A stretch of 24,000 nucleotides of DNA, taken from Stenotrophomonas maltophilia ATCC 19867. GTDB taxonomy: Bacteria > Pseudomonadota > Gammaproteobacteria > Xanthomonadales > Xanthomonadaceae. The stretch covers positions 98,682-122,681 of the forward strand of contig NZ_KB907503.1 of NCBI RefSeq assembly GCF_000382065.1, given 5' to 3'. Below are positions 158 to 20,804 of the stretch, in pieces. The notes under the pieces are model-generated. The model saw nothing but the letters and a program-made list of their open reading frames with translations. It was not told the origin of the DNA and did no database searches. The translations under genes were made by a program, and so were the position numbers. How positions within the stretch are numbered: the stretch's first letter is position 1; each line of letters begins with the position of its first letter.

Positions 158-364
158 CTAATTTCGCTGCTCTTCGAGCTCTGCAATTTGGGCCTTCACC
201 AGCTTAAGTGCTTCCTGCACTTCTTCCTCTGTCCCGTTTTCGGCGGCTTTCTGCGCCTCAGCGCGAACTCGGTCGCATTCAGCCTTGAAAACCAGGTCGT
301 CCCAGCCAACCGATTCACTGTGCAATGTGCGAATTGCAGTCTGCAGTTGTCCAACGGCACTCAT
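158..364 (-). CDS. Hypothetical small helical/coiled-coil protein (68 aa from the internal ATG; ORF open to 385)
   Basis: Minus-strand ORF MSAVGQLQTAIRTLH...EEEVQEALKLVKAQIAELEEQRN has a charged, heptad-like C-terminus and is followed by the hairpin at 87-115. The overlapping plus-strand ORF 68..448 is Cys/Leu-rich and looks non-coding. No family recognised. Confidence 0.45.
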   Translation of the reverse strand: MSAVGQLQTAIRTLHSESVGWDDLVFKAECDRVRAEAQKAAENGTEEEVQEALKLVKAQIAELEEQRN

Positions 365-542
365 GAAACACCTATCTGCGAGCAATGGACCGCACCAGCA
401 CGCTGCTGGTACTACAACCCAGCCCTCGCGACTTTCACGCTACCTTAACTTGACCCAGAAAAGCAACTCGGCTTGTCAGCCATCTGGCTCGTAGGCTCCT
501 GATTCGATAGCCGGCGGCTCATTCAAACTTTCACATCGATAT

Positions 543-601
543 TGCGCGCATTTGCGCGCACTATAAGGGCTCCAGGCTCCTTGTGAGCGGAATTACGCGC
601 A
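543..601 (+). promoter_or_regulatory. Putative operator/promoter region of the XRE-family gene: three TGCGCGCA-type palindromes
   Basis: Self-complementary TGCGCGCA at 543-550 and 553-560, in 10-bp register. TACGCGCA at 594-601 abuts the ATG at 603. TATAAG at 562-567 lies between them. Confidence 0.35.
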
Positions 602-602
602 T

Positions 603-896
603 ATGAACGTCAGTCCAGTCCAGTCTCCCGACGAAATTGCCGAAGCTCTAGGAAAGCGATTGAGGTCCAAGAGGCTTGCCGCCAACATTTCTCAAGCAGC
701 ACTCGCCGACAAAGCTGGAATTTCGCGCAGGGCCCTGGTGCAGCTTGAGGGTGGGCAGGGCTCGACCGTTTACACGCTCGTCTGCGTTCTCAAAGCGCTG
801 GGTCTGGATGACCAACTGAGCGCAATCGCGATGGGCCCAACAGTTAGCCCAATGGCTATGCTCAAGATGAAGCGTCTTCGGCAAAGGGCGAGCTAA
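603..896 (+). CDS. XRE-family helix-turn-helix transcriptional regulator, HipB/Y4mF antitoxin-like
   Basis: 97 aa. LRSKRLAANISQAALADKAGISRRALVQLEGGQGSTVYTLVCVLKALGL matches the Cro/C1-type HTH pattern (S/TQ..LA...G.S...i...E.G) and the V..VL.ALGL tail typical of HipB/Y4mF-type antitoxins. No toxin gene follows. Confidence 0.8.
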   Translation: MNVSPVQSPDEIAEALGKRLRSKRLAANISQAALADKAGISRRALVQLEGGQGSTVYTLVCVLKALGLDDQLSAIAMGPTVSPMAMLKMKRLRQRAS

Positions 897-1097
897 CGGC
901 GTTTCTTCGGGGAACGGTTCAACCCCAGTTTTTCGGACACTTACAAGGCCGCGCCGAGGCGACGGCCATCCAAGCCCATGCACGCGAGCTTCAAGCGAAT
1001 AGCCCAACCCAAGGCCTGATAGCCGACCACCACTCTGCCGGCGACATGATCAGCCCGCCGAGCAGGCAAGCGCTCTAATGCAAGGACGCTCAGCCAT

Positions 1098-2051
1098 CTA
1101 GACTGCAGCTTCGACATACCTTGGGAGGTATCTGACCAACTCCGAGTAGGCGCGGAGATCAGGCTCCTTGAAACCGAGCAGCTCGAGCGTCTCATGCTCA
1201 GGCGACGCCTCGTCCCCGGTCACCGCTCTATCAAACAGCGCCCGCTCTCGCTCGGTGAGATGGAACGACCTAATCCTGTACATCGATCCTTGAGGAAGAA
1301 ACGGCAACGAAGAGCTCAGCGCCTTGCGCACCTTCTTCGCCTTGGCCACCGGCAGCAGCCCACCACCGACAGTCACCATCGGCATCGAGTCGGAGTACTC
1401 AACCTGAAGCAGGAACACGAACTCGTTTTCTGCATCACCAGGGAATGCATTCTTAAAAGCAGCAACCAGTATCTTGTGGACCGCTGTGGCAAAAGAGGAC
1501 TTCTCGGTGTCGGCAACCCTCACGCCCCCTGAAAAATCACCCAAATTCTCTTGCAGGTGAGTCAAACGATCCGCTGCGCTGGCACTCTCAATCACTCGCG
1601 GAGGATGACCGGAAACCGTGACAAAGCAGAAGTGACCCGGCTTGGCCCTGGTAGCAACAGATGCGATATCGGCCACCACCTCAGGGCCAATGCCTCCATC
1701 GTAGTCCAGCCACAGCAGCTCCCTCCTCGCCGACCGAACGTTCTGCAAGAAGCCGAGCACTGATTCATTTCTAACTTCGATGAAGCGATAGGGCACGTTG
1801 TACATCGCCCTCTCGTACATCTGGGCGTCATGCTCCAAGCTCACCATCGCCTTTACTCCCAGATGCTTGTGCAGCATCAGGAAGTCGTAAAAGCGATTTG
1901 CGCCCATGCCAATGTACTTGTAGTCACGAATGGGGATGCCGCAGTCACCCGCAACCTTCAACACATCTACCAGAAGGCCGCGCTCGGACTGCTTCGCCGG
2001 CCTAAGATCGTAAGCAATGAATCGCGCAGTAGACTTGGTTGGCCGAGGCAT
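1098..2051 (-). CDS. Hypothetical protein coupled to the GHKL ATPase; weak class-I methyltransferase-like (Rossmann) motif order
   Basis: 317-aa ORF. Its ATG (2049-2051) shares one base with the upstream ATPase stop (minus strand reads TGATG). Motif-like strings YIGMGANRFYDF, SLEHD, IEVRNESVLGFL and LWLDYDGG occur in the order of SAM-MTase motifs I/II/III/IV. This assignment is tentative. Confidence 0.7.
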   Translation of the reverse strand: MPRPTKSTARFIAYDLRPAKQSERGLLVDVLKVAGDCGIPIRDYKYIGMGANRFYDFLMLHKHLGVKAMVSLEHDAQMYERAMYNVPYRFIEVRNESVLGFLQNVRSARRELLWLDYDGGIGPEVVADIASVATRAKPGHFCFVTVSGHPPRVIESASAADRLTHLQENLGDFSGGVRVADTEKSSFATAVHKILVAAFKNAFPGDAENEFVFLLQVEYSDSMPMVTVGGGLLPVAKAKKVRKALSSSLPFLPQGSMYRIRSFHLTERERALFDRAVTGDEASPEHETLELLGFKEPDLRAYSELVRYLPRYVEAAV

Positions 2052-3427
2052 CAGGTCTCTCCGACCTCATTGCGCAGGAAGTAGTTGAACGTATGTCGCC
2101 CAACATCTGATCCCGACATACCCGGCTTCTTCAGATGCTTAGCGATCTTCTCAACCTCAGGCATCAGCGCGTCGTACTGAATCTTGACCGTTGGGATCAC
2201 CTTTCTCTTAGGCGTCTTGAAGGCCTTGGGCTTTGCTACCGCGGCAGCCAAGACGCTTACCCGTTCCGGACCGGAGGCGGTCTGTAGATCGTTGGCATCC
2301 ACCTCAGTTCCGACATCGGAGTAGCGAGAGTCCAAATAAGACACGACCTCGCGCCCGACGGCGGCCATCTCGCGCTTAGCCGTCTGCCAAGTCGAAGAGT
2401 CTTCATTGATTCCCGATTTGGTCGTCGTCCAAGGCAGCTTCTCCGGGTCCTCGGCGACAAAGAAGACCGTCCCCAAGAACGGTCGGTGCTTAGGCTGGAA
2501 GATGGGAATGGCGCCACCGCCCCAGCCGGTCAGTGCGGTCTTATCAGCCGAAACGACAGCTCGGCCATTGCAGAAGACGAACCAACCAGAAGACTTCTCG
2601 CGATACTTTCCCGCAACCGGCACACCCAAGCCCGCAGAGATTGTGCAGGTCACATCATTGATCTTCACCTGTTTGGTGGCGTGATTCTCGCTGAGATCGA
2701 TGCTGGTGCCTTCCACCTGCTCATCATTGAGGCTGATGGTGACCAGCTTACCCAAGTAATAGGAGTAGGTACGAGAGATGGCATCTCTCAGCTGCCCGTC
2801 AAAGACACCATCATTGACGCGCCGCTTTACTTCGTCGTACAGCTCAGTGACGGTAATGGTCGTACCTGTCTCGCCTGCAGGAACCGGATCTCGCTTGGTG
2901 ATCTTGAAGGTCCATTCACTGCCTTTGACTTTCGACCACTCCGACACGTTCAAGGCCAGGTCAAAGCCTCCATCAACGTGATCAGACCGCATATGGATAA
3001 CGTTGCCGAGCTTGAAGATCGCCCGCTTAAGGCCGATGCCATAGACTGACAAACGGTCTGTTACGCTTGCTGGCTCATCGCCCCGTCCAAATTTAAACAC
3101 GTGGTCCTTGGCGGTCTGAGCCGAGATGCCAGTTGCAGTGTCGACGATGACAACAGACTGATCAGAAATCTCCAAAGAGATTGAAGCCGATGGCTTTACC
3201 TTTGGGTCATCTTTGAGCTTCAGATAGTCATGCGCCGTCTTCAGCCGAGCCGCGTAGGGCTCGGCAGCCGCATTGATGGAGTTATCTACAAGATCAAGAA
3301 ACGCCGCGACCAGGGGGATGTCCCTGGTCAGCAGGGAGATAAATAGTCGCTTCTCCGGACTGGCGTCCGCTGCAAGAACTTCGTTCACCTCGGATCCCCC
3401 ATGACAGCCCGTTGCGAATGCACTCAT
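2051..3427 (-). CDS. GHKL-superfamily (MORC/HATPase_c_3-like) ATPase
   Basis: Bergerat-fold motifs in order: N-box-like FLDLVDNSINAA, G1-like VIVDTATGIS, G2-like SVYGIGLKRAIFKLG. Start set at the only ATG upstream of the conserved region (MSAFATG..., 3425-3427). The ORF is open to 3574, but that version would overlap the divergent gene. Confidence 0.8.
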   Translation of the reverse strand: MSAFATGCHGGSEVNEVLAADASPEKRLFISLLTRDIPLVAAFLDLVDNSINAAAEPYAARLKTAHDYLKLKDDPKVKPSASISLEISDQSVVIVDTATGISAQTAKDHVFKFGRGDEPASVTDRLSVYGIGLKRAIFKLGNVIHMRSDHVDGGFDLALNVSEWSKVKGSEWTFKITKRDPVPAGETGTTITVTELYDEVKRRVNDGVFDGQLRDAISRTYSYYLGKLVTISLNDEQVEGTSIDLSENHATKQVKINDVTCTISAGLGVPVAGKYREKSSGWFVFCNGRAVVSADKTALTGWGGGAIPIFQPKHRPFLGTVFFVAEDPEKLPWTTTKSGINEDSSTWQTAKREMAAVGREVVSYLDSRYSDVGTEVDANDLQTASGPERVSVLAAAVAKPKAFKTPKRKVIPTVKIQYDALMPEVEKIAKHLKKPGMSGSDVGRHTFNYFLRNEVGET

Positions 3428-3594
3428 TGAGTGTATCGCCGGGACGGCTCGTTCGCCATATGCCTGGGACAGCGTTAGAAATCCAGTGCCGCATGTAGGA
3501 ATTTCCCTACAGCAAGGACAGAGTTTACGTGTGCAACAATCGCGCTGCCCCGTTAAGGGGATCGATTCACGCACACACTCGACAGGGGAAGGCA

Positions 3595-4938
3595 GTGAGC
3601 ATCATTTTCAAGGTAATGGATCCCGAAGCCCGGACGGAGCTCATCAGGGATCTGACTGAAGAAGCTATCGCTAAGCGGCAGTACCAGAAAGAGTTCAAGT
3701 TCCGAGCCGGCATGGAGCTTCCTGTCATTGCCGTTCCGATCGAGTTGCCGGTCTATCGCCTGGAGAACTATCGCACTCGCGACCAGCAGCTGACGCTGAT
3801 CGCCAAGCGGGAGAAAGAGGACGGCCTGTTTGATGTAAGCAACACTGAGAATCCCGAGTCGCAGCTGGCGCAGCACGCCATCCTGCTGAAGCAGTCAAAG
3901 GACGGGAGTGGAGAGACCATCAAGCCCATCCATCAGGAGCTTGGCCGCGTCGGCCAACAGACGGAAAACCTGATCATCTCTGCCACCGGCATTGTAGTGA
4001 ATGGAAACCGCCGATTGGCGGCAATGCGAGACCTGCGCGGGCAGAGGTCTGAGGGCTCGGATCCGTTCAAGTACGTCAACTGCATGGTCTTACCAGCGTC
4101 GGCCACTCCGAGGGAAATTCGCGAGCTCGAGATTGCATTGCAGATGCAGCCTGAGACGAAGCTGCCCTACAACTGGACTGCTCTTGGCCGTGCGGTGCGA
4201 GACATGCTCGATGCGAACTACTCCTATGAAGAGATCGAGCGGCAAACGAACCGTAGCAGGAGCGAGCTGGACCGGGCTGCCGCAATGGTCACTGCCGCGG
4301 AGCTCTACCTGGCCTCCTGGCTGGAGAAGCCCCAGGACTTCAGCAAGCTTGACGATACCGAGCAGGCATTTGCCCAAGTAGTAGTGCGAAATTATGCCAA
4401 GCAGGACGACGCGCAGCTTCGGGAAGCCACGCGCAAGTTCGACTTCTTTGTGATTGAGCATCGCGACTTCATTAGTGATAGCGCTTACAAGCTCATCAAC
4501 GCAATTGAATCCAACCCCGAGATATTCCTGACCAACATGGCCAAGGAGTTGGACGTTGACCTCGCCCCACTTCAGGATGCGTCCGAAGAGGTGCTGGAGA
4601 TCGACTTCGGAGTTGGAGCTGATGGCGTAGCCCCTGTCAGCTACGACGCCCTGATCGATAGTCTGATGGTCGGCCGCGGTGATAAGGTCAGAGCGAAGCA
4701 ACTGATCAGTACCATCGAGGAAGTAGCCTTCGCAGCGGTTGAGCAAGGCAGGGCCCGAGACAAGGCCGCGCTCAAGTTGGTCCAGGCGGCCGAGCGAAAG
4801 CTCTCCCAGGTCGACATCAACTCAGCTGGCACCGATACCTATGCTGAAATTCTTGATCTGCTTGATCGCTGCGTAGCTCGCATTGAAAGCATCCGTAACG
4901 AGATCGGACTTCAGAATCGCGCCGGGGGCACCCATTGA
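3595..4938 (+). CDS. ParB/sulfiredoxin-like N-terminal-domain protein with a long helical C-terminal region
   Basis: LPVYRLENYRTRDQ and IVVNGNRRLAAMRDL (GNRR codons 4003-4014) match the ParB N-terminal GxRR box. GTG at 3595 is preceded by AGGGGAAGG; the alternative ATG is at 3616. The stop overlaps the next gene's start (TTGA at 4935-4938). Confidence 0.78.
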   Translation: MSIIFKVMDPEARTELIRDLTEEAIAKRQYQKEFKFRAGMELPVIAVPIELPVYRLENYRTRDQQLTLIAKREKEDGLFDVSNTENPESQLAQHAILLKQSKDGSGETIKPIHQELGRVGQQTENLIISATGIVVNGNRRLAAMRDLRGQRSEGSDPFKYVNCMVLPASATPREIRELEIALQMQPETKLPYNWTALGRAVRDMLDANYSYEEIERQTNRSRSELDRAAAMVTAAELYLASWLEKPQDFSKLDDTEQAFAQVVVRNYAKQDDAQLREATRKFDFFVIEHRDFISDSAYKLINAIESNPEIFLTNMAKELDVDLAPLQDASEEVLEIDFGVGADGVAPVSYDALIDSLMVGRGDKVRAKQLISTIEEVAFAAVEQGRARDKAALKLVQAAERKLSQVDINSAGTDTYAEILDLLDRCVARIESIRNEIGLQNRAGGTH

Positions 4939-6836
4939 GCCAACCAGCGATCGTTCTTTCGTACAACACGGTCGACCGAAGCGGCGTGTTCCGTCGAGGC
5001 ACCGGGGTCCCTAGCGATGCCTGGACCAGGCTTAAAGCTGTTGCGCAGGAAATGGATGCGGGAAGCAGAAGTGTCGGCGATGAGCTGGAAGTCCATTGGC
5101 CAGCAGCACTTAGTCTGCTGAGAGCGCTTCACACCTTGCAGAAGTCACACGGCTTTCGCTTCACCACCGACGACTCCTCCGGGGAGAGAGTCCAGCAGTT
5201 CATGCGGGACTTCCGCGCCACCCAGGAGGCGGGCGGCAGAAGCACTACCATTGATGCGCAAGAGCTCGCTGCAAGGCTTACCGCACTGGGATGGAACAAC
5301 CAGACGCATAAGCTCAAGCCCTACCAGTTGGACAATCTCGCAACGCTGCTGTCCATACGTAATGGAGCCAATTTCTCTGTCCCTGGCGCAGGCAAGACGA
5401 CCGTTACGTTCGCACTGCACTTGCTAGCCCGAAGCCCTGGCGACATCCTGATCGTTGCCGCCCCGAAGAACGCGTTTCCCGCCTGGGAGGGCATCGCAGA
5501 GGAGTGCTTGCTGCCGACGGCGGACGAGGAGCTGATGGAGGAATTCATCCCGCTGGTTGATGGCGAGGTGCGTATCCGTGCCGCCCTTGAAGGCGGCGGA
5601 CGTCGCTTCCTCATCTCCTATGATCAGCTGGTGCGGGTCGAGGCTACCTTTGCTCAGTTCATTGCCACCCACCCAGTGCACTTGGTCCTCGACGAATCGC
5701 ATCGCATGAAGGCCGGTTACAACTCACTTCGTGGCGCCAGCTTGCTGCGAATGGCCCACCTTGCTGTGAGGCGCGACATCTTGACAGGCACCCCGATGCC
5801 TCAGTCCAGCTCGGACATGCAATCTCAGCTGGATTTCCTGTGGCCGGGTGTCGGGTTGGGCTGGAAGGTGGCCGCAGGCACTGAGCCTCGAAAGGTGATG
5901 GATGGACTCTATGTCCGGACAACCAAGACACAGCTCGGCCTGCCTGAGAGGCGCCGTGAGTTTGTCCAAGCGACCCTCTCCGATGCCCACTGCGCGTTCT
6001 ACTCTGTCCTTAAGGATGACCTACGGTCTAGGGCGAGCTTGCTTCGGAAAGGGCGGACATCCCAGTCCCTCATCGCGGCCCGACGCTCTGTGGTAAGGCT
6101 TTTGCAGGCAGCTGTCGATCCCACCCTGGTCGCAGAGACGATCGATGACTTGGCAAGCCAAAACGCCAATGGGTTGCTGCGAGCAGTTCAGGCGGAAGCG
6201 CTCAATGGGCGAATTCGAGCCGCTGTGGATCTGGCCGAACGCTTGATCAGTGAGGGCAAGAAGGTGCTGATCTGGACCATCTTTACCTCTACGGTCCGCA
6301 AGCTGCGCGATGTTCTTGCCCACCACAACCCTGCCCTAATCTATGGCGAAATCGGCATGGGTGAGGCAGATGACCTGAGCACGCGCCAAGGCAACCTGGC
6401 CCGCTTCAAGAATGATCCCAATTGCCGCGTGATGATCGCCAACCCTGCGGCGGCCTCGGAGGGCATCAGCCTGCACATGCATTGCCACGATGCAATCTAC
6501 GTGGATCGTAGCTACAACGCGACCCACTTCCTCCAGTCCATCGACCGAATTCACCGACTGGGGCTGCCGGCCGATGTCGTCACTACGGTGTACGTCATCC
6601 AGAACCGGCTACCGGCTGGAATCGGCTCGATCGACGTGTCCGTTAGCCGGCGTCTGGGCCAGAAGATCCGAGCGATGGAGAAGCTTCTGGAGGATCCGGA
6701 CCTGAATGATCTTGCCCTGGACGAGGAAAACGCTCCGGCATCGCTGGCAGATGAGCTCGACGCCGAGGATATCGATGACATCATCGCCGAGCTCGAGGGC
6801 AATCCCCCTCCGGCAACTGACGAGGATCTGGTGTGA
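4935..6836 (+). CDS. SNF2-family (SF2) helicase/translocase
   Basis: Motif I VPGAGKTT (Lys codon 5394-5396), motif II LVLDESHRMK (DESH 5691-5702), motif V-like MIANPAAASEGISLH, motif VI QSIDRIHRLGL. TTG start overlaps the upstream stop. The C-terminal tail is acidic. Confidence 0.9.
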   Translation: MSQPAIVLSYNTVDRSGVFRRGTGVPSDAWTRLKAVAQEMDAGSRSVGDELEVHWPAALSLLRALHTLQKSHGFRFTTDDSSGERVQQFMRDFRATQEAGGRSTTIDAQELAARLTALGWNNQTHKLKPYQLDNLATLLSIRNGANFSVPGAGKTTVTFALHLLARSPGDILIVAAPKNAFPAWEGIAEECLLPTADEELMEEFIPLVDGEVRIRAALEGGGRRFLISYDQLVRVEATFAQFIATHPVHLVLDESHRMKAGYNSLRGASLLRMAHLAVRRDILTGTPMPQSSSDMQSQLDFLWPGVGLGWKVAAGTEPRKVMDGLYVRTTKTQLGLPERRREFVQATLSDAHCAFYSVLKDDLRSRASLLRKGRTSQSLIAARRSVVRLLQAAVDPTLVAETIDDLASQNANGLLRAVQAEALNGRIRAAVDLAERLISEGKKVLIWTIFTSTVRKLRDVLAHHNPALIYGEIGMGEADDLSTRQGNLARFKNDPNCRVMIANPAAASEGISLHMHCHDAIYVDRSYNATHFLQSIDRIHRLGLPADVVTTVYVIQNRLPAGIGSIDVSVSRRLGQKIRAMEKLLEDPDLNDLALDEENAPASLADELDAEDIDDIIAELEGNPPPATDEDLV

Positions 6837-7663
6837 ACCGGGAGGCCGCTGCGGCCTCCTTTCTAAAGCCCTCGGTGGTATCTGGGCTGGCGCTACTGCG
6901 CAAGCGGGCCGCTCAGGCGCCGGGTCAGCCATGGGAGGTCACCGTTCGCTTGGCCGCGGCAAGCCATCAGGGGCAAGGGGTTGATCTTGATCGCGCGTGC
7001 CAGCTGCATGAGCTGTTGCCTGCTGACCTGGTGGACAGTCCCGGCTTGTATCGAGCGGCCATACTGCTCACAGCCAAGCAGCTGCCTCCGTGGCTGGGGC
7101 AGCTCCGATCGGGGCGGGAGTTTCTCAGCGACGCCGGCGCGGATCTGCGCTCCTGTTTTGAGAGGGCGGGCGCGCTGGATGCGGCACCCGATCAGACGGT
7201 CATCAGCTGGTGGGACGACTTGGCAGGCCTGGCCTACGGTACGTTGAACCAGGCCAAGATGGACGTAGGCAGACGTGCGGAGCGCCTCAGCTTGGAAAGG
7301 GAGCAAAGGCGGCTGGAGTCTTTCCCCGGGCATCCTCCGATCCAGTGGACTGCCCTGGACTCCAACGCCGCCGGCTATGACATCCTTTCCTGGTCAAAGC
7401 GGGATGGCCATTGGTATCCGATGTACCTAGAGGTCAAAGGCTTTAGCACCTCCCCGGCCAAGCTCTACCTGACCCGAAACGAGTGGGAAACGGCCAAGCG
7501 CCTTGCCGATGACTTCCACTTTCAAGTGTGGGATGTGGGCTCGAACAGGATGGCCCAGCTATCCACAAGCCAAATGCTTCCCCATGTTCCATCGGACGAG
7601 GGCATGGGTCGGTGGGAGGTGCTCTGTGTCGAGGTTTCTGAGGACTTTTTCACCCCCGCGTAA
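6833..7663 (+). CDS. DUF3883 (NOV C-terminal)-like protein, restriction-endonuclease-fold PD-(D/E)xK candidate nuclease
   Basis: GRRAERLSLEREQRRL...AAGYDILSW...MYLEVKGF...LYLTRNEWETAKRLADDFHFQVWDV follows the DUF3883 pattern. Candidate catalytic residues are D183 (7379-7381), E200 (7430-7432) and K202 (7436-7438). GTG start overlaps the SNF2 stop (GTGA 6833-6836), with GAGGA 6 nt upstream. Confidence 0.75.
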   Translation: MNREAAAASFLKPSVVSGLALLRKRAAQAPGQPWEVTVRLAAASHQGQGVDLDRACQLHELLPADLVDSPGLYRAAILLTAKQLPPWLGQLRSGREFLSDAGADLRSCFERAGALDAAPDQTVISWWDDLAGLAYGTLNQAKMDVGRRAERLSLEREQRRLESFPGHPPIQWTALDSNAAGYDILSWSKRDGHWYPMYLEVKGFSTSPAKLYLTRNEWETAKRLADDFHFQVWDVGSNRMAQLSTSQMLPHVPSDEGMGRWEVLCVEVSEDFFTPA

Positions 7664-7700
7664 CCCTCCTCCTTGTCCCTCAAGGGCTTGACCGGGTAAC

Positions 7701-7746
7701 TTGCGCCCAAGACAGGGAGATCTATAATTCTGGCAGATCTTAGGAG
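7701..7746 (+). promoter_or_regulatory. Sigma70-like promoter and RBS of the methyltransferase gene, flanked by two AGATCT palindromes
   Basis: TTGCGC (7701-7706), 16-nt spacer, TATAAT (7723-7728). AGATCT at 7718-7723 overlaps the upstream edge of the -10, and AGATCT at 7735-7740 sits near the predicted +1. AGGAG (7742-7746) lies 6 nt before the ATG at 7753. Confidence 0.55.
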
Positions 7747-7752
7747 CAGAGC

Positions 7753-8670
7753 ATGCCATATCGTCGCGCTACCGCAGCATGGAGCCATTTGGACGCCAAG
7801 GAGGGCAGCTACGCGCTACTGAATGGCGACTGCGTTGACCTGCTCCGAGCCCTGCCTGACGAATCCGTTTCGTTGGTCGCGACCTCCCCCCCATATTGCA
7901 TGGGGAAAGAGTATGAGGCGGGGAACACCATCGATGACTTTATTCTCGCCCACGACAAGATCCTTCCGGAAATACTTCGGGTGGTGAAGCCCGGCGGAAG
8001 CATCTGCTGGCAGGTGGGTTATCACGTCGACAACAGTCAGGTCATGCCACTTGACTACCTTGTCATGGATGCGATGCGCAAGCTCGCCGATCCCCCGGTC
8101 CTACGCAATCGAATCATCTGGACGTTCGGCCATGGCTACCATTGCGAGCGCAGGTTCAGCGGCAGACACGAGACCATTCTTTGGTACACCAAGGGTGGCA
8201 GCTATCCCTTTGATCTGGACTCGGTGCGTGTCCCTCAGCTTTATCCAGGGAAGACTGCGAACAAGGGGCCGCTGAAGGGACTTCCAAGTGGCAACCCCCT
8301 GGGCAAGAATCCTGGCGACGTCTGGGACATTCCCAACGTCAAGTGGAATCACGTTGAGAAGCTGGATCATCCGTGTCAGTTCCCCGTCGCGCTGATCAGC
8401 AGACTGGTGAACTCCATGACGCTGCCCGGAGACATCGTGCTGGATCCGTTTGCAGGTGTTGCGACCACGGGCGTCGCCTCACTCCTTGCCGGCCGCCGAT
8501 TCATCGGGGCCGAGCTGGACAGCAAGTACGCCGACATTGCGGACAAGCGGCTGAGAGAGGCCGTCGAGGGAACGGTGCGCGTCCGGGAAGACAAGCCCGT
8601 TCAGCCCCCGAGCCCCCGCAGCAAGCTTGCGATCAGGCCCGACAACTTTAAGAACTTCGATGCGCTTTGA
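7753..8670 (+). CDS. Beta-class (motif IV before motif I) N4-cytosine/N6-adenine DNA methyltransferase
   Basis: Motif IV VATSPPY (SPPY codons 7885-7896) is N-terminal. Motif I VLDPFAGVATTGVASLLAGRRFIGAELD is C-terminal. This is the N6_N4_Mtase architecture of M.PvuII/M.RsrI type. SPPY rather than DPPY leans towards N4-cytosine, but specificity cannot be read from sequence. Confidence 0.9.
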   Translation: MPYRRATAAWSHLDAKEGSYALLNGDCVDLLRALPDESVSLVATSPPYCMGKEYEAGNTIDDFILAHDKILPEILRVVKPGGSICWQVGYHVDNSQVMPLDYLVMDAMRKLADPPVLRNRIIWTFGHGYHCERRFSGRHETILWYTKGGSYPFDLDSVRVPQLYPGKTANKGPLKGLPSGNPLGKNPGDVWDIPNVKWNHVEKLDHPCQFPVALISRLVNSMTLPGDIVLDPFAGVATTGVASLLAGRRFIGAELDSKYADIADKRLREAVEGTVRVREDKPVQPPSPRSKLAIRPDNFKNFDAL

Positions 8671-8858
8671 TCTGCTGCTGCTTTGCACGGTGGCCCTGCA
8701 GCGGCCATCCTGAGGCCCCTCCTGGAGCAGTAGGCTAAGCCAGATGCTTGTCACTCTGGCCGCGGGTACCGCAGCCCGTCCTCGGTCGGAGTTCCAACGC
8801 CAGCCGCCGATTCGAATTGGGGGTAGCATGGAGTTCTGCTTCCCAAGAGCCGAAGAAC

Positions 8859-9266
8859 ATGAGCAGACCAATTGCTGCGCCCGATGGCGAGCTTGCAGGA
8901 CCTGCCTTGCGAGCCTTCACTCAGATTGCCGAGGCCTGGTCCCTGACAGAGCTGGAGCAGTGGGCGATTCTCGGTCAACCAGTGGACGCCGCCTTCGCGG
9001 TGATCGACGCTGGCGATGTGGACGACCTCTGGCCGGACACTCTTGAAAGAGTGAGCTACGTGCTCGGCATCTATCGTGCGCTGCACACGATCTTTTCCGA
9101 TCCAGAGCAAGCAGATTCTTGGGTGCGCCGCCCCAACGCCGCCCCCGCGTTCAACGGTTCAACAGCGCTGGCGCTCATGTCTAGCGGCAGGCTCAGCGAC
9201 CTTGCGTCGGTGCGACAACACTTGGAGGCTGGCGGATGGATCAATCCTGAGGCACCAGCCACTTAG
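8859..9266 (+). CDS. DUF2384 / Xre-MbcA-ParS-type antitoxin-like protein (toxin-binding domain), orphan
   Basis: AEAWSLTELEQWAILGQP...LERVSYVLGIYRALHTIFSDPEQADSWVRRPNAAPAFNGSTALALMSSGRLSDLASVRQHLEAGG follows the DUF2384 pattern (eRl..l..i...l..lf.....a..Wl..pn..l.g.tPl.l......G...v...L). Start set at ATG 8859; the ORF is open from 8748. Confidence 0.72.
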   Translation: MSRPIAAPDGELAGPALRAFTQIAEAWSLTELEQWAILGQPVDAAFAVIDAGDVDDLWPDTLERVSYVLGIYRALHTIFSDPEQADSWVRRPNAAPAFNGSTALALMSSGRLSDLASVRQHLEAGGWINPEAPAT

Positions 9267-9323
9267 CGATATCGCGCGAAGCAAGAACCTGTGCTGGAGC
9301 CAGTTTGCCACCCTTCTTTGAAG

Positions 9324-9343
9324 TCGAGAGCTAGAGCTCTCGA
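9324..9343. terminator. Hairpin between convergent genes (possible bidirectional terminator)
   Basis: TCGAGAGCT (9324-9332) / AGCTCTCGA (9335-9343), a 9-bp inverted repeat. It lies in the 107-bp gap between the DUF2384 gene end (9266) and the HEPN gene end (9374). There is no clear U-tract on either strand. Confidence 0.4.
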
Positions 9344-9373
9344 TCCTCAAGTGCGGATTGGCCGAACTGCGAA

Positions 9374-10735
9374 CTATGCCCGCTGGTTCTTCGCCGGTAG
9401 CAGAGGCACACCCCGATCCAGCAATTCATCCAGGAAGGCATCGCGCACCAATGCCTGGTCGGACTGGTTGGCCAACACCAGGCTATCAACCACGCGCCTG
9501 GCAAGCGTACGGGCCCGAACTCGCAGAAGGGCCGGGATCGCCTGCATCGATCTACCGTGCAAGAACTCGCTGCGCAGCTCGAACAGCTCCCTGTAGTCGG
9601 AGGTGGCCTGCTCATCGAGCAGCGCCACCAAACGAGCGCACACTCTTTCAGTCGCCCCAAGCTTATCGTGAGTGCCGACGCCCGAGCTGGACTTACGCTT
9701 GTAGTCCAACGGCAGGCCGAGCGCCGCCTCGATGGCAAGAAGATGAGACATGAATTCGTCGATGCCATCAGTCAAGAAGGCACGGCAGAAAAAGTGGGCT
9801 ACAGGTGTCTGGAACAGCTGCAGCTGAGGCAACTGTGCGATCGCCTGGGCGCGGCCCGCGAAATGTTCGGTAAGAGCGTCCGCCGATCCATCTCTCAGCC
9901 ACATTGCAACGGGCTGAGAGATGTCGACCGATCGACCTTCCGCGTCATGGGCGATCCGATCCTCCCAAGTGAGGGTATCCGAGCTGGGCGGCCGCTTCAT
10001 GGTGGAGAACAGATCATGGTCCACCGAGTACAACCAGGGAATCTGCATCCCACGCCATTCAATGTGTGGCGCATCTGACCAAATTTCCCACGGTGCCAGC
10101 GCTAGCCAGAACAGTGCCGTCTCAACGGCCTCCGGATACTTTCCTCGATGAGGTTCGATGCGCCCATAGTCCTGTTTCGGATCGAACGAGAATCGGAACA
10201 GCTCTCGGCCTTCAGGGCCACGACGGATCGACACTTGTTCCCTCACGACCAGCCATTGAAACTGGGAGAACTCGTCAAGGTCAAAGCTCTTCCCTGGATG
10301 GACTCTCTCCATGCGATCAAGGTCAACAAGCTCGGCAAGCTCGTCCTTGGTCAATCTGCCAACCACCGCATTACCGAAACACGCCATTGGAAGGCCGTCT
10401 GCAAGATCCAGAGGCATCAGATGGACTCGCGTGAAGCAGGTTGCTTCCAGCGCGGCCTGTAGCCGTTCCGCAGCCTCCCTTGCCGTCATCGCCAAGTGCT
10501 TCTTGGATTCAGGCAACCCACACGGCAGACCAAGGCCGGCCAGCGCACAGGACATGGATATGCCACCGAAGAATCTCCGCGCGTCTGCAGAGTAGGGCTC
10601 AATCGCGTCCACCAGCTGTGCGTAGAGGGGGGTCTCTGTCAGATTCTTCCACGCGGAGTCGGGAAGCTGCCAGAGCGCCTCCATTGCACCTACGAGTTGT
10701 GAGGAGGGAGCCCCGGCCACCGAGCTGCTGATCAT
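9374..10735 (-). CDS. Protein with uncharacterised ~300-aa N-terminal region and C-terminal HEPN-like domain (R-x4-H)
   Basis: 453 aa. The C-terminal segment FFCRAFLTDGIDEFMSHLLAIEAALGL...YRELFELRSEFLHGR carries R388-x4-H393 (codons 9572-9574 and 9557-9559), the HEPN RNase signature, after an LE-A-L helix typical of Abi/Apea-like HEPN domains. The ATG overlaps the TIR gene stop (ATGA). Confidence 0.68.
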   Translation of the reverse strand: MISSSVAGAPSSQLVGAMEALWQLPDSAWKNLTETPLYAQLVDAIEPYSADARRFFGGISMSCALAGLGLPCGLPESKKHLAMTAREAAERLQAALEATCFTRVHLMPLDLADGLPMACFGNAVVGRLTKDELAELVDLDRMERVHPGKSFDLDEFSQFQWLVVREQVSIRRGPEGRELFRFSFDPKQDYGRIEPHRGKYPEAVETALFWLALAPWEIWSDAPHIEWRGMQIPWLYSVDHDLFSTMKRPPSSDTLTWEDRIAHDAEGRSVDISQPVAMWLRDGSADALTEHFAGRAQAIAQLPQLQLFQTPVAHFFCRAFLTDGIDEFMSHLLAIEAALGLPLDYKRKSSSGVGTHDKLGATERVCARLVALLDEQATSDYRELFELRSEFLHGRSMQAIPALLRVRARTLARRVVDSLVLANQSDQALVRDAFLDELLDRGVPLLPAKNQRA

Positions 10736-11841
10736 ATCTTCAGCCTCCGCAGCAACTTCTCCAGTCCTTCCTCATACTTCTCCGCGCTGGAGAAGTCGGC
10801 GTAGAGCTTCCCTTGCAAGAAAGCAGGGATATCGCAATCCTCGAAGAGCATGGGCAGGACAACGACTTCGCCGCTACTGATCTCGCGGTTCATGGCCACA
10901 TCAAGCTCTTTCTTGACCCAAGGCGCAGCGATCGACTTCTGCGACAGGACTACACCGACGTATCGGCTCATTACCATTCCCTCGTCAATCTTTGCGATCA
11001 GCGAGTCACCCACTTGTATCTCGGCTTCATCCAGCCAGACCTTTGGCACGCCTCTTTCCATCAGGTCACGCCTGAGCTTCCTGACGAACGGCTTGTCGGC
11101 ACTGGTATGGCTAAGGAATATCCCATGGTACCTGGGGGCTTCTGGCTCCGCCTTGCTCACGGCCAGAGCGCCCAAGATGAGACGGTTGGTCGCTTCCTGC
11201 GTCAACGGCGGAGTTATCAACCATCCTGTGGTTGCACCGATCTCAACTCTGGCTCCAATTTGGTAACCCTCCGGCGTCGCCGCAATCGTAGTCAAGCCCG
11301 GTTGATCGTTCTCCAGCGCGATCCTCCAGCCGCCGAGAGTGGCCAAGTCCCCGAAGTAGGAGGCGAAGGGCGTATCGGGATCTATGAAACCCACTCGCCT
11401 TCCCTTCTTGATTATCTGACCCCCACGCCGAATCGCGGCTGTCATCGCCGGCGCCAGATACCCCAGGCTCGTCTCTCGATAGCCGAAGAAGTTCATTCGC
11501 CGTGGCTCGGCCATGCACCAGACCACGGTCGCACCCACGGCCATGGCGGCCTCCAGCTCGTTCTGGCGGTCCACACTGTCAAAGACGTTGTCCAGATCAT
11601 GCTCTCTGTCGTCCGCTTTCAGCTCCAGAAGCTCCTGATCTGAGCCAGAGTGCACGCCCTCTTTGCCGAACAGGAAGTGGCTGTAGCTCTGTGGATTGAT
11701 AACGATGACGTCATACTCATAGAGCGGGTACGCAGCCCTGGCCTCATCGATGTCTGATCGGCAAAGTCCGAGTTGCTCGAACTCCACACCTTCAATCGGG
11801 GTGCCGGTGTATTGCATACCGACAGTCAGCACTCTCTTCAT
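10732..11841 (-). CDS. TIR-domain protein with an uncharacterised ~235-aa N-terminal alpha/beta domain
   Basis: 369 aa. Residues ~238-369 (approx. 10735-11130), YHGIFLSHTSADKPFVRKLRRDLMERGVPKVWLDEAEIQVGDSLIAKIDEGMVMSRYVGVVLSQKSIAAPWVKKELDVAM, match bacterial TIR_2. This includes the W...E glutamate (E312, 10906-10908). A strong SD (AAGGAGAG) lies 5 nt upstream of the ATG at 11841. Confidence 0.87.
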   Translation of the reverse strand: MKRVLTVGMQYTGTPIEGVEFEQLGLCRSDIDEARAAYPLYEYDVIVINPQSYSHFLFGKEGVHSGSDQELLELKADDREHDLDNVFDSVDRQNELEAAMAVGATVVWCMAEPRRMNFFGYRETSLGYLAPAMTAAIRRGGQIIKKGRRVGFIDPDTPFASYFGDLATLGGWRIALENDQPGLTTIAATPEGYQIGARVEIGATTGWLITPPLTQEATNRLILGALAVSKAEPEAPRYHGIFLSHTSADKPFVRKLRRDLMERGVPKVWLDEAEIQVGDSLIAKIDEGMVMSRYVGVVLSQKSIAAPWVKKELDVAMNREISSGEVVVLPMLFEDCDIPAFLQGKLYADFSSAEKYEEGLEKLLRRLKI

Positions 11842-12194: not shown

Positions 12195-12543
12195 TTGAGG
12201 ATCATTCTCAAAGTTGCGCAATTGACACTTTTGCTCGCATCCGAGGGGCCTTGTCGGGGGAGCGAGCCGCTCGCGGGGATTGCCCCGCCCGGGGCGCTTG
12301 AATGCCAGGTTGTACGCCCCGCTCGGGACCCTTCACATTGGTCCTTTCACGTCCGATTGTGCTTGTAAATAGCATGCTTGCTTCATGTCCTACAGCCGTC
12401 CCGGCTGCCCTCCCCCCCTTCCCAGCCGGGGTAGACCGCCATGGCTGGCGACCTGCCACAGCCGGTCTCAGTCTGGGAGATGGGGGCATGTTGTACTTGC
12501 AATGAAAACCGGGTGCTACAATTTCCAAACGATGGGGACCGTC

Positions 12544-13071
12544 ATGACGACAATGTGGAAAGAACCTGAAGCACTGGGCTGGAACCGTGCCGAGGTGTCT
12601 GCGCTTGCCTCCGATGCGGTGAAGGAACTGGGCTTCTCCCCTGGGCAGCCCATTGAGCCAATCGTCCATCAGCTCGGCGGTAAGATCGTCTACGGCGAAC
12701 TCATCGAGGATGAGTCGGATTCTGGCTCGATTCGCATCGAGAACGGCAAGTTCACCATCAACATCCCCTTCAACACGAGTCCCCTGCGCGATCGATTCAC
12801 CATCGCCCATGAGATAGGTCACTTTGTTTTGCACTACCTGGTGCAGAACAAGATGAACAAGAAGAACATCACGCACCTGCGCGCTCAGCGGTATGGAAAG
12901 GACCAACCTGAGATCGAGGCCAACTGGTTCGCTGCTGCATTCCTGATGCCCAGCGATACCTTCCGCAGGGTCTACCAAGAACTTGGGAAGGACACGCTGA
13001 AGGTAGCGGAGTACTTCAAGGTTTCGCCCAGCGCAGCGAGCGTGAGGGCCCAGTCTCTCGGCCTTTCCTAA
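12544..13071 (+). CDS. ImmA/IrrE-family (M78, COG2856-like) zinc metallopeptidase
   Basis: FTIAHEIGHFVLH (HEIGH codons 12808-12822) is followed by PEIEANWFAAAFLMP, the HExxH...E.EAN.FA..fLmP signature of ImmA/IrrE peptidases. Start is uncertain: ATGs at 12502, 12532, 12544 and 12553. 12544 has GGGGA 5 nt upstream, and TACAAT lies at 12517-12522. Confidence 0.85.
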   Translation: MTTMWKEPEALGWNRAEVSALASDAVKELGFSPGQPIEPIVHQLGGKIVYGELIEDESDSGSIRIENGKFTINIPFNTSPLRDRFTIAHEIGHFVLHYLVQNKMNKKNITHLRAQRYGKDQPEIEANWFAAAFLMPSDTFRRVYQELGKDTLKVAEYFKVSPSAASVRAQSLGLS

Positions 13072-17286: not shown

Positions 17287-18249
17287 CTAGATGTCAATCT
17301 CGACGTACTCGTGACGAACATGGCTGAGGAGTTTCGGAAGTAGCAGACGCATCCGGTCCAACGCGACTTCGATCTTCTGCCAGACGATCTCCTGATCTGG
17401 GGAAAGAGACGCATCTCCAGGATTGGAGAAGAAATATCGGCTTCCGTCCGGCGCGGGGCGATAGACCTGCCAGTAGCGCACGGTCTCGGCAAATTCCTCT
17501 TCGAACTGAATGAGAAGCTCATGAGCCGCTGCGTCATGGAGATGAAACGAGCTTGCCGCAAGCACGCCGCTGAAACACTCATACATATCGACCGTGTTTG
17601 ATGTGAGCACGCGAGGCGCCCACTGCATATGAACATCCAGAACATTCAAATCAAGCGTAGATATCACCCTTCTCAGCGCGGCCAGGTCGCGAGAGCGCCT
17701 CAGCTGCTCCGGCGACTTCTCCGCACCGGGCTTATCTGGTGCCAAGCTGATCAACGTATCAACAGCAACGCTCAATAGCGACAGGAGGCTATCCTTCTGA
17801 TTCTTGGTAACAGGCTCGCTCGCCTTGTAGCCAGAGGCGCGTTGCCGATCAATATCAAACGGCATATCTGAAAGCGGACCGAACTCCTCATTTACAAGCA
17901 GGATGATGCGCCCCCAGCCCAGCATGGCGACCGCATAGCCAAGCTCGAAAATCACGTTGGGGTTGGGCACCCTCCTGTCAGATGGTGCGGCGCTCTTGTT
18001 GATCGTAGATACGTCGCAGATGAAGTAATCTGCCTTGCGTATCTTCTCCAGAATCGTCAGCGGAACGTTCTGGCTACCAGAGGTCTCGCGAGTTGCCTCA
18101 TCCAACGTAATGGACAGGCCAGAGTGCTTTTCTTCGGCAGCATTGATGGCCAAGCGCAGCTGCTTCTTGATCAGCTGGCGATTGGTCGCATTGGGCAGAT
18201 CGCTCTGCCAAGAGTAGAAGATGGTCCTGGTGGTGGTTTCGCTGGTCAT
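17287..18249 (-). CDS. Nucleoside 2-deoxyribosyltransferase-like / TIR-like (Rossmannoid) N-terminal-domain protein with an uncharacterised C-terminal domain
   Basis: From ATG 18249: MTSETTTRTIFYSWQSDLPNATNRQLIKKQL...KADYFICDVSTIN...VPNPNVIFELGYAVAMLGWGRIILLVN. The aD..i.d......pN.nV.fElGyA...g...i.l block resembles the catalytic-Glu region of the NDT/DrHyd and TIR-like assemblage. The ORF is open to 18339. Confidence 0.6.
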   Translation of the reverse strand: MTSETTTRTIFYSWQSDLPNATNRQLIKKQLRLAINAAEEKHSGLSITLDEATRETSGSQNVPLTILEKIRKADYFICDVSTINKSAAPSDRRVPNPNVIFELGYAVAMLGWGRIILLVNEEFGPLSDMPFDIDRQRASGYKASEPVTKNQKDSLLSLLSVAVDTLISLAPDKPGAEKSPEQLRRSRDLAALRRVISTLDLNVLDVHMQWAPRVLTSNTVDMYECFSGVLAASSFHLHDAAAHELLIQFEEEFAETVRYWQVYRPAPDGSRYFFSNPGDASLSPDQEIVWQKIEVALDRMRLLLPKLLSHVRHEYVEIDI

Positions 18250-18479
18250 GCTGATGGCAATCGGGCTAAGGGTTGCGAGCATGGAGAGGTTCGCCGCGGC
18301 GGTCAACACAGAGTAGGCGCACGCGGCTCCACACAACATCCATCTTCTGGACCGGTCTCCGCCGATACCCTAAAGGCCGACAGCCGGAGTAGCCGCTCGC
18401 ACCCCGGCTATCGGCAACGGCAAGGCGTAGCGCGCACTCATAGGCAGCGATGAGAGCTTCCGCCTCCCGGCACCGACAC

Positions 18480-19360: not shown

Positions 19361-20605
19361 CTAGGCCGTCGAGTCGCTTTTCGACCTGGGTAAGTGCGGA
19401 GCCACCGTCTCTCGAGCTCGCTCGTGGCGGCGTAGAAGTACTCGATGATGCAGGCGTTCCACCGTCGCCGTAGGCAACACCAAATTCATGCCTGTGCCTC
19501 GTTCAAGATTACCGGCGTCCCATACTTGGAGGAACGCATCCCAAGCTTGTGGGTGGATATCCGATTCCGCAGCATGCTCGCGCATGACCCGCCTGACGTG
19601 TCCGGCAATGACATCGGCAATCATCAGCCCGGGAGTCTGGGCTGAGGACTCAAAGGCCAGGCCGGCATGCTCGACAAATGAGTAGTCGGCACCGGGGTGC
19701 TCATAGCCAGAGGTATCGACAAAGGTCTCTACCTTCGCCTTGGCAGCACGAAGGACCTCATCGTACTGCGTCTGCTCATCATGCACTAAGGTGACATCCG
19801 AAAGGCGACCTGCACAGCACTTGTTGATCCGAGCGTATAGATTGGTCAGCGACGAGTAGTTGGGAAGCAGCCAGTAGGTCGCGTGTTGCTTACCCTCATC
19901 TGGCAGTGGCAAGTAGGTGTGGTGCCCCTGCGGATCGTGCTTCATGGCGAAGTCGAATACCTCCAGGGAGTGACCCATGCTCTGGCGCAGCAGGTACAGG
20001 AGTTGACGGTCTTCTGGGTCGTCCTCCAGCGCCGCCTCTTCAGCCCATGCCTGCAAGGTGACAAGACTGGCGCGCACAGCTTCTGGAGAACTTAGCTTGC
20101 AGGCGTCGACATAGGCCCCTAGCACTGAATCGGGCAGGTTTGCGTAGAGGTAGTCTGCCAGACGGTTTCGCAGGTATACCTCGCCCTCGTCAAGCTCAGG
20201 ACCCGACCCTGGCGGAATGATCTGCGAGTTGATAATGGAGGCGATCAGATAGAACGCTTTATCCACCACCTCAATGAAAATGGGGATATCCAGCTCCCCC
20301 AATCCTCGTGCCAGATCGCGCGCGACTCCAGGGCGCCGGTGAAGCAGCTCTGATTTGAGCTCTCGCATTTGATGCAGACGGTGCTTGGCCACGATGTCAT
20401 CGAGCAATCGGGACGCCTGTTCGCTGCTCATGGGCCCAACGGCCGCCAGCACGAAGTGAGGCTGCTCACCGAACTCGAACGACCGACCGGTGTTGACCAA
20501 GTCGCCCGTGTGCCCGCTCTCGTCGATGTAGACGAACTTCATGCAGGCCGGTTCCGGCTCATCGCTCTGCCCAAGCGGGAGCGTATCGAACTGCGTCTCA
20601 TCCAT
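19361..20605 (-). CDS. DUF3800-domain protein
   Basis: MKFVYIDESGHTGD near the N-terminus is the DUF3800 signature (yiDESG). Start set at ATG 20605, with AGAGG 8 nt upstream. The ORF opens with TTG at 20626, and another ATG is at 20542. Confidence 0.7.
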   Translation of the reverse strand: MDETQFDTLPLGQSDEPEPACMKFVYIDESGHTGDLVNTGRSFEFGEQPHFVLAAVGPMSSEQASRLLDDIVAKHRLHQMRELKSELLHRRPGVARDLARGLGELDIPIFIEVVDKAFYLIASIINSQIIPPGSGPELDEGEVYLRNRLADYLYANLPDSVLGAYVDACKLSSPEAVRASLVTLQAWAEEAALEDDPEDRQLLYLLRQSMGHSLEVFDFAMKHDPQGHHTYLPLPDEGKQHATYWLLPNYSSLTNLYARINKCCAGRLSDVTLVHDEQTQYDEVLRAAKAKVETFVDTSGYEHPGADYSFVEHAGLAFESSAQTPGLMIADVIAGHVRRVMREHAAESDIHPQAWDAFLQVWDAGNLERGTGMNLVLPTATVERLHHRVLLRRHERARETVAPHLPRSKSDSTA

Positions 20606-20804
20606 GGATAAGCCTCTATCCTTCAACTGCTCTCAATGAGCAGAGATATCCAGCAGGTATCGGCGAGTGCGCCCCATCCTTTAGTAGGGCCACCGAATCC
20701 TGATGCCCCTGACGCTGGAAGGAGATGTCCACTCAAGCGCACGCAAGGGCCGCATAGCGCTGTACGGCCAAGGCACACCCAAAGCCGCTACTGGCGGCAC
20801 AGTC

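Follow-up and report, generated by a model that had tools for sequence, protein, structure and literature searches.

A six-gene locus and its closest described relatives

The nearest described parts list to the locus studied here belongs to Hma, a system related to Type-1 BREX that likewise brings together an SNF2 motor, a DUF3883/restriction endonuclease (REase)-fold nuclease, a methylase and an accessory ATPase (PMC11232893, PMC12839542). HmaA, in which the SNF2 and DUF3883 parts are fused, protects against phage T4 on its own (PMC11232893). A second point of reference is provided by the predicted paraMORC/MORC restriction-modification (R-M) systems, where GHKL ATPases go with methylases and in some cases also with SWI2/SNF2 helicases and REase-fold nucleases (PMC2292703). 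We analysed a 24,000-nt stretch of Stenotrophomonas maltophilia ATCC 19867 (GCF_000382065.1, contig NZ_KB907503.1, 98,682-122,681 of the forward strand), hereafter the window, and within it a locus of six open reading frames (ORFs) at 1098-8670. The ORFs lie where an earlier examination of the DNA letters, which we call the sequence-only reading, had placed them: a Methyltransf_35 protein (1098-2051) and a GHKL ATPase (2051-3427) on the minus strand, followed on the plus strand by a ParB-like protein (3595-4938), an SNF2 ATPase (4935-6836), a DUF3883 protein (6833-7663) and a DNA methylase (7753-8670). On balance we favour the view that 1098-8670 is a composite, methylation-keyed (R-M-like) defence locus in which one methylase serves two separable modules. 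Module A (3595-7663) comprises the ParB-like, SNF2 and DUF3883 proteins, and module B (1098-3388) the GHKL and Methyltransf_35 proteins. The six proteins are encoded identically in several S. maltophilia assemblies, for example GCA_004522395.1, their catalytic motifs are all intact and kept in homologues, and translational coupling is tight inside each module.

The sequence-only reading held that this gene set fits no canonical system, and our scans of the six proteins against Pfam, NCBIfam, PADLOC (PADLOC-DB v2, 2023 release) and PHROG agree, giving no system-level match. Hma membership failed on every feature tested, namely a fused HmaA, a DUF1156 methylase and a DUF499 ATPase. HmaA is a single fused protein of ~1,180 aa, whereas here SNF2 (633 aa) and DUF3883 (276 aa) are separate and translationally coupled. 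In the SNF2 protein the PADLOC model of HmaA covers residues 442-543 only, within the helicase C-domain (E 9.4e-6), and the DUF3883 protein matches the PADLOC models PD-T4-1, PDC-S36 and TmtA but not HmaA. In place of HmaB, a DUF1156 methylase, and HmaC, a DUF499 ATPase, we found an N6_N4_Mtase enzyme with an SPPY motif and a GHKL protein, and Hma is without a ParB-like or Methyltransf_35 component. With the paraMORC systems (Iyer, Abhiman and Aravind 2008) the locus shares intact GHKL ATP-binding motifs and an adjoining DNA methylase, the latter in 63 of 76 related loci. A ParB-like component and a partner of the Methyltransf_35 type are both absent from their description (PMC2292703), and here the GHKL protein is tied obligately to the methylase and Methyltransf_35 but only facultatively to the helicase-nuclease. 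We assign the GHKL protein to the general paraMORC class and to no specific paraMORC family. The ParB-like protein and the 317-aa Methyltransf_35 partner are thus, as the sequence-only reading had supposed, additions to the Hma and MORC schemes, being absent from both.

For the SNF2 protein PADLOC returned only partial matches, to DrmD, ZorD, DpdE, HmaA and BrxH. Hma, DISARM, BREX, Dpd, Zorya and MADS were all rejected, their signature genes being missing. DISARM class 1 likewise pairs an SNF2 helicase (DrmD) with a DNA methylase (DrmMI), and DrmD is the best PADLOC and NCBIfam match of the SNF2 protein; the match covers the helicase C-domain only and scores 48 bits against an NCBIfam cut-off of 610. 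There are no DrmA, DrmB (DUF1998) or DrmC (PLD) genes, and no DUF1998 or PLD domain in the window ORFs scanned. For BREX (PglZ, BrxC) and Dpd (the TGT-like DpdA) we saw partial BrxH and DpdE matches to the SNF2 helicase domain and none of the signature proteins. MADS is a 22-kb operon of eight genes (mad1-8) with a kinase and a specificity subunit, and differs from the locus in content. The GHKL, Methyltransf_35 and ParB-like proteins gave no PADLOC match, the GHKL protein is also without an NCBIfam model, and these three components are covered by no PADLOC model of 2023 and by no searchable paper. We found neither module described in PADLOC-DB v2 (2023) or in open-access literature text, a scope within which a recent description may have been missed.

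One methylase and two separable modules

Gene neighbourhoods were compared in two sets of loci. The first comprised 80 species-level genome loci anchored on the ParB-like protein, with 10-kb flanks whose ORFs were searched with the window proteins, and the second 76 metagenome loci anchored on the GHKL protein, with flanks of up to 10 kb. In 79 of the 80 ParB-anchored loci the SNF2 gene lies directly 3' of the ParB-like gene on the same strand; the DUF3883 gene then adjoins SNF2 in 74-75, and a close homologue of the window methylase adjoins this cassette in 77. The hosts cover Alpha-, Beta- and Gammaproteobacteria, Acidobacteriota, Bacillota, Verrucomicrobiota, Nitrospirota and Binatia, at least six phyla in all. 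A GHKL or Methyltransf_35 gene within 10 kb was found in none of the 80, including the Pseudoxanthomonas locus L007, whose ParB-like protein is 54% identical to that of the window. Around the GHKL anchors, Methyltransf_35 adjoins or overlaps the GHKL homologue in 60 of 76 loci, the remainder being mostly truncated contigs, and an orthologous N6_N4 methylase (phmmer E ~1e-100) adjoins the pair in 63. The ParB cassette is present in only four. Most loci of this set consist of the methylase, GHKL and Methyltransf_35 only, and L102, L111, L115, L148 and L169 are without the cassette even at full 10-kb flanks. By synteny, then, the ParB-like, SNF2 and DUF3883 genes form one unit and the GHKL and Methyltransf_35 genes another, the latter an obligate pair, and the distributions of the two sets of loci point to two separable modules around one methylase.

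Both modules were nevertheless observed together with one methylase in S. maltophilia and in at least nine other distinct loci. The order is divergent, as in the window, in L088, L090/L091, L171 and L172; all genes are co-directional in L087, co-directional with the methylase first in L093, and convergent in L105-L107. The six-gene set has an extra gene in L093 and L105-L107. Every combined locus contains exactly one methylase of the window-methylase family, and the three closest ParB-like relatives outside Stenotrophomonas in metagenome assemblies (61%, 57% and 55% identical) all occur with the GHKL pair. This recurrence in several gene orders would suit the single machine proposed by the sequence-only reading, an integrated assembly of six components in which GHKL and Methyltransf_35 are the obligatory clamp or switch for a ParB-SNF2-DUF3883 nuclease. 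The six genes do recur together outside S. maltophilia, but they are not inseparable: none of the 80 ParB-anchored loci has the pair, L007 included, most GHKL-anchored loci lack the cassette despite full flanks, and in a Pf phage the pair stands beside a C5 methylase. We consider the single machine quite unlikely, and the distribution fits two modules better.

Separability is also what would be expected of two unrelated systems that lie side by side in a defence island without a functional link, the methylase belonging to only one of them. Defence islands routinely juxtapose systems, and the window is full of other defence-like genes. However, each module on its own almost always comes with an orthologous methylase, in the proportions given above, and a second methylase is seen in no combined locus. 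The two modules meet again and again, in four gene orders and across ParB-like proteins that have diverged to a phmmer E of ~1e-20. The methylases of different contexts also intermix, with identities to the window enzyme of 74% in L007, 73% in L090, 70% in L102 and 68% in L088, so that cassette-only, GHKL-only and combined contexts are interleaved. A chance meeting of unlinked systems is, in our judgement, unlikely. The synteny is most simply read as a methylase hub into which two modules plug, the locus being neither an indivisible machine nor a chance juxtaposition.

Module A contains a partition-type ParB fold

The ParB-like protein (3595-4938, plus strand) is 447 aa long and returned zero matches in Pfam, including ParBc, NCBIfam, PADLOC and PHROG. 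Its AlphaFold model (predicted local distance difference test score, pLDDT, 85.5; built on 21 homologues) and Foldseek comparison point to a ParB N-domain, a helical middle region resembling a helix-turn-helix (HTH), a linker and a helical C-terminus. The top 29 Foldseek matches in the PDB are all ParB, Noc, KorB or Spo0J proteins, aligned over the N-domain and HTH region, with probabilities mostly of at least 0.94 (one 0.82), E values of 3e-3 to 6e-2 and, for the best, template modelling (TM) scores of 0.5-0.6 on the target. Viral ParB/Spo0J HTH proteins in BFVD also match the model, with E values down to 1e-5. The sequence NGNRR at residues 136-140 corresponds to the GxxRR nucleotide-binding box of the family and is invariant in 87 of 87 homologues. 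The ParB-like assignment made by the sequence-only reading is thus borne out by the predicted fold and the invariant box, despite the silence of the sequence models. The family contains 497 proteins at E<=1e-30 among 50%-identity representatives, and in a scan of 185,579 species genomes relatives were encoded in 180 stretches.

With the ParB/Noc/KorB CTP clamps the protein shares the N-domain and HTH fold, the GxxRR box and the three-part layout. Unlike them, it has no ParA or partition context and no Pfam ParBc match, its gene shares an operon with those of a translocase and a nuclease, and CTP binding is only putative. ParB-superfamily domains are found in immunity linked to DNA modification, in GmrSD, BrxU, SspE and DndB, and in these ParB/DUF262-type systems NTP binding has been proposed to gate the nuclease (PMC10853773, PMC12839542). 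Those sensors are of the DUF262 type and are fused to HNH/DUF1524 nucleases or belong to phosphorothioate systems, whereas the window protein has its nearest fold relatives in partition-type ParB proteins with an HTH and is encoded separately, beside an SNF2-nuclease pair.

The next gene (4935-6836, plus strand) encodes an SNF2-family SF2 ATPase/translocase of 633 aa with Pfam matches to SNF2-rel_dom (1e-6) and Helicase_C (5e-5). Its GAGKT and DE(S/A)H motifs are kept in 84 homologues, and the Walker A lysine is residue 154, codon 5394-5396, as had been predicted. It is followed (6833-7663, plus strand) by a 276-aa protein of the DUF3883/NOV_C type with a PD-(D/E)xK nuclease fold (Pfam NOV_C, E 2e-10). 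Here D183 is present in 80 of 81 homologues and E200-V-K202 in all 81, in agreement with the original DUF3883 call. The coupling of the three genes can be read directly in the sequence, as a TTGA overlap of the ParB-like and SNF2 genes at 4935-4938 and a GTGA overlap of the SNF2 and DUF3883 genes at 6833-6836. In their domains the SNF2 and DUF3883 proteins together resemble a split counterpart of the fused HmaA.

The methylase and the sites in its promoter

The shared methylase (7753-8670, plus strand; 305 aa) was correctly recognised by the sequence-only reading as a beta-class DNA methyltransferase: it matches N6_N4_Mtase in Pfam (4e-49) and MTase_II in PADLOC (2e-67), and carries TSPPY at residues 44-48, of which the SPP core is kept in 129 of 132 homologues. 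That the gene has a promoter of its own had also been claimed. A simple consensus scan for promoters and terminators over 900-9400 found no promoter; the claim is nonetheless strongly supported by conservation, since the 89-bp gap between the DUF3883 and methylase genes can be aligned in five loci even though identity among their ParB-like proteins is only 36-61%. The promoter (7701-7746, plus strand) consists of a -35 element TTGCGC at 7701-7706, a 16-nt spacer, a perfect -10 element, TATAAT, at 7723-7728 and a ribosome-binding site AGGAG at 7742-7746.

Two AGATCT sites lie in this promoter, one at 7718-7723, overlapping the first base of the -10 element, and one at 7735-7740, near the transcription start. 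They are the only AGATCT sites in the whole 24 kb, where shuffled sequences would give 6.8 +/- 2.8. Upstream of 128 methylase homologues the degenerate form RGATCY occurs 0.59 times per 152-nt stretch against a background of 0.12, a 4.8-fold enrichment, and the commonest palindromic hexamers there are AGATCT and GGATCC. In the window's clade the methylase is preceded by one or more RGATCY sites in all 16 loci, and by two in 11 of them. The two-site design recurs in loci that contain only the GHKL pair, for example L102, where it reads GGATCT-ATAAT-N-GGATCC.

The SPPY motif is a mark of N4-cytosine methylases, and M.BglII is a beta-class enzyme of this kind. The product of M.BglII is AGAT(4mC)T (PMC4882945). 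The conserved promoter sites, the M.BglII product and the conserved SPP core, together with a BglII-fold gene in the sister clade (see below), lead us to predict that the window methylase targets AGATCT/RGATCY in the manner of BglII and modifies the N4 position of cytosine. Given that the predicted target sites lie in the -10 and start region, the methylase probably adjusts its own expression according to whether this promoter is methylated. R-M promoters that contain target sites have precedents, such as CfrBI.

A BglII-fold gene in the sister clade

The likeness to the BglII, BstYI and BamHI type II R-M systems extends from the beta-class SPPY methylase and the AGATCT, RGATCY and GGATCC sites in its promoter to a gene of the sister clade. 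When flanking ORFs were clustered, a gene of ~153 aa emerged that separates the methylase from the ParB-like gene in 67 of 70 sister-clade loci with the methylase upstream. Its carriers lie among L017-L086 (e.g. L048, 9462-9944) and also include L093, L105 and L106. The product passes the gathering score of Pfam Endonuc-BglII (E 5e-7) and can be aligned to the catalytic strands of BstYI and BamHI. At the position of the catalytic glutamate (E111 in BamHI, E128 in BstYI), however, 66 sister-clade sequences have Q (58), H (6) or T (2), and never E or D. With this substitution in 66 of 66, the protein is probably not a conventional endonuclease and may be a non-catalytic site reader.

Unlike these type II systems, the window has no BglII-fold endonuclease gene; a hidden Markov model of the sister-clade gene found none in the window, nor in the window's clade. 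The statement of the sequence-only reading that the locus lacks a classical restriction endonuclease is therefore true of the window, but does not extend to the family as a whole, in which 67 of 70 sister-clade loci carry this gene.

Module B and the divergent spacer

The GHKL gene (minus strand) forms an ORF from 2051 to an ATG at 3427. The most likely start is the GTG at 3388, because the resulting 445 aa matches the length of homologues. The protein is paraMORC-like, with a Pfam match to HATPase_c_3 (E 4e-8), and its Bergerat motifs DLVDNSINA (DxxDNSxNA), DTATGI (DxxxGI) and YGIGLK are kept in homologues, which upholds the original GHKL assignment. The family is strongly conserved, with 954 matches of 56-78% identity and ~445 aa. 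Sequence searches of the PDB gave no match for the GHKL family profile and nothing useful for the Methyltransf_35 protein.

This partner (1098-2051, minus strand; 317 aa) overlaps the GHKL gene by one base, as read in TGATG at 2051. The sequence-only reading had described the overlap and the protein correctly but left the latter anonymous, whereas it matches Pfam PF20553 (Methyltransf_35) with an E value of 2.7e-63 and 214.6 bits against a gathering cut-off of 27, over profile positions 3-308 of 309. The predicted fold is the Rossmann fold of class I S-adenosylmethionine-dependent methyltransferases: the AlphaFold model has a pLDDT of 85.5, and Foldseek retrieved generic class I methyltransferases (EgtD, Trm1) at E ~3e-7. 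The motifs GxG, E73 and D116-Y-D are conserved. A version of the pair was also found at the left end (280-3711) of the Pf filamentous phage PfAC20 of Pseudomonas aeruginosa (L168, PP058144.1), together with a C5-cytosine methylase. The GHKL protein there is 32.5% identical, Methyltransf_35 matches at E 8e-86, and the two genes overlap by one base as in the window. The GHKL pair is therefore sometimes phage-borne, with a methylase of a different class.

Between the two modules lies a divergent intergenic spacer (3389-3594). It had been given as 167 bp, and with the GHKL start at GTG 3388 becomes 206 bp. The spacer contains an element, CGTGTGCAACAATCG (3528-3542), that is common to the window, L171 and L172 and is not present in L090, and an inverted repeat. 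The repeat, reported earlier as GTAGG-N6-CCTAC at 3493-3508, is in fact TGTAGG-N6-CCTACA at 3494-3511, a shift of 1-2 nt. We rejected it as an operator, as it is unconserved in related loci and occurs at chance frequency; five-bp inverted repeats with a spacer of up to 12 nt occur ~3.2 times per 167 bp in the window. Its conservation suggests that CGTGTGCAACAATCG is the better candidate for a regulatory element. The simple consensus scan found no consensus sigma-70 promoter in the spacer. We also observed a GGATCC (RGATCY) site at 3392-3397, 4 nt upstream of the probable GHKL start, which may be a matter of chance or a second methylation-sensitive control point.

Genomic setting

The sequence-only reading had taken the locus for a modification-dependent defence machine. 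The view of an R-M-like locus within a defence island is supported by the neighbours, which include genes for TIR, CAP12-TIR, DUF4365 and Xre/ParS proteins. Directly downstream of the methylase is an Xre/MbcA/ParS-type antitoxin gene (8748-9266, plus strand; toxin-binding C-terminal domain, E 4e-8), with no evident RES or ParT toxin gene among the calls beside it. It is followed by a two-gene operon (9374-11841, minus strand) for an unannotated protein of 453 aa and a protein of 369 aa that ends in a TIR domain (TIR_2, 6e-27; PADLOC PDC-S66, 2e-26, and ThsB, 1.5e-12). In every S. maltophilia contig this operon is conserved beside the locus, and it is a candidate for a separate defence system. 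Further defence-like cargo comprises an IrrE/M78 peptidase (12385-13071, plus strand), a CAP12/Pycsar-type TIR protein (17287-18339, minus), a DUF3800 protein (19361-20626, minus) and a DUF4365 REase-like protein (21300-22442, minus; PADLOC Aga_REase, 4e-9). An HTH_3 gene at 603-896 was rejected as a controller protein, since it is not conserved beside the locus outside S. maltophilia.

Tn7-like genes (Mu-transposase C, TniB and TniQ) adjoin L088, L090, L169, L171 and L172. In L169 the trio of methylase, GHKL and Methyltransf_35 genes directly flanks the transposition genes, and the element is inserted among housekeeping genes. A short ChlI/Mg-chelatase (comM-like) gene lies beside L172 and beside the S. 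maltophilia locus (L001, 12238-13134). These neighbours hint at a Tn7-like element that targets comM and has the island as its cargo.

Such associations bear on whether the locus serves immunity at all, or instead the maintenance or epigenetic regulation of a mobile element (KorB-like silencing, partition, methylase addiction) or offensive anti-restriction, in the manner of the methylase-SNF2 polyvalent proteins that phages and plasmids carry. Besides the several loci on Tn7-like elements and the GHKL pair in a Pf prophage, this alternative can draw on the resemblance of the ParB-like protein to KorB, Noc and Spo0J, and on the SNF2 protein, whose best PHROG match is phrog_62, annotated only 'DNA helicase' (E 2.6e-47); dyads of methylase and SWI2/SNF2, such as DarB, occur in polyvalent proteins (PMC5512222). 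Yet a ParA-type partner is absent from the gene tables of 10 related loci, and the conserved PD-(D/E)xK nuclease is never missing. Among 50,697 phage genomes there is no full-length match to the ParB-like gene, and among 72,556 plasmids a single one; the distribution is patchy, chromosomal and island-borne, typical of defence cargo. We regard a role outside immunity as improbable.

A proposed mechanism and its implications

Taking the gene content, folds, motifs, synteny and promoter sites as the starting point, a composite defence locus could operate as follows. The methylase would mark self DNA at AGATCT/RGATCY, and module A would restrict DNA that is unmarked. The ParB-like protein, the best candidate for a loader, would bind unmodified DNA as a loader or clamp gated by NTP, and would recruit or license the SNF2-DUF3883 pair, which would then translocate and cut. 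Module B may form an ATP-driven second module that reads, or depends on, the same methylation mark. It might entrap DNA in the manner of MORC, introduce a second covalent modification or have a regulatory effect.

Several of our observations sit less comfortably with this model and count against it. The best solved relative of the methylase, M.RsrI (E 7e-34), is an N6-adenine enzyme. RGATCY was present in only 12 of 63 methylase upstream regions of the sister clade, and specificity or regulation therefore differs there. The NTPase and sensor role of the ParB-like protein we infer from its fold and one motif. Module B has no recognisable nuclease, and could be regulatory instead of a defence effector.

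A bolder version of the composite reading is possible, although we are doubtful of it. Here a partition-type, NTP-gated ParB/KorB-like clamp would serve as the sensor of non-self DNA, or as the loader, that licenses a split SNF2-nuclease, and the same mark would also key a nuclease-free, MORC-like prokaryotic module that, guided by methylation, entraps or modifies DNA non-nucleolytically, a possible functional forerunner of eukaryotic MORC silencing, with the methylase as a swappable 'epigenetic hub'. Returning to the composite reading itself, the locus is probably an uncharacterised R-M-like immune locus, a variant of helicase-nuclease defence built around a shared BglII-type methylase. The predicted recognition site and the clear point mutants that can be made in it make the locus a well-defined experimental target.

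What we describe would be an uncharted and widespread candidate immune cassette. If this is true, the partition/CTP-clamp ParB family would have a new job inside a restriction-like system. The swapping of modules around an orthologous methylase suggests how R-M-like systems diversify, and that one methylase may serve two mechanistically different modules.

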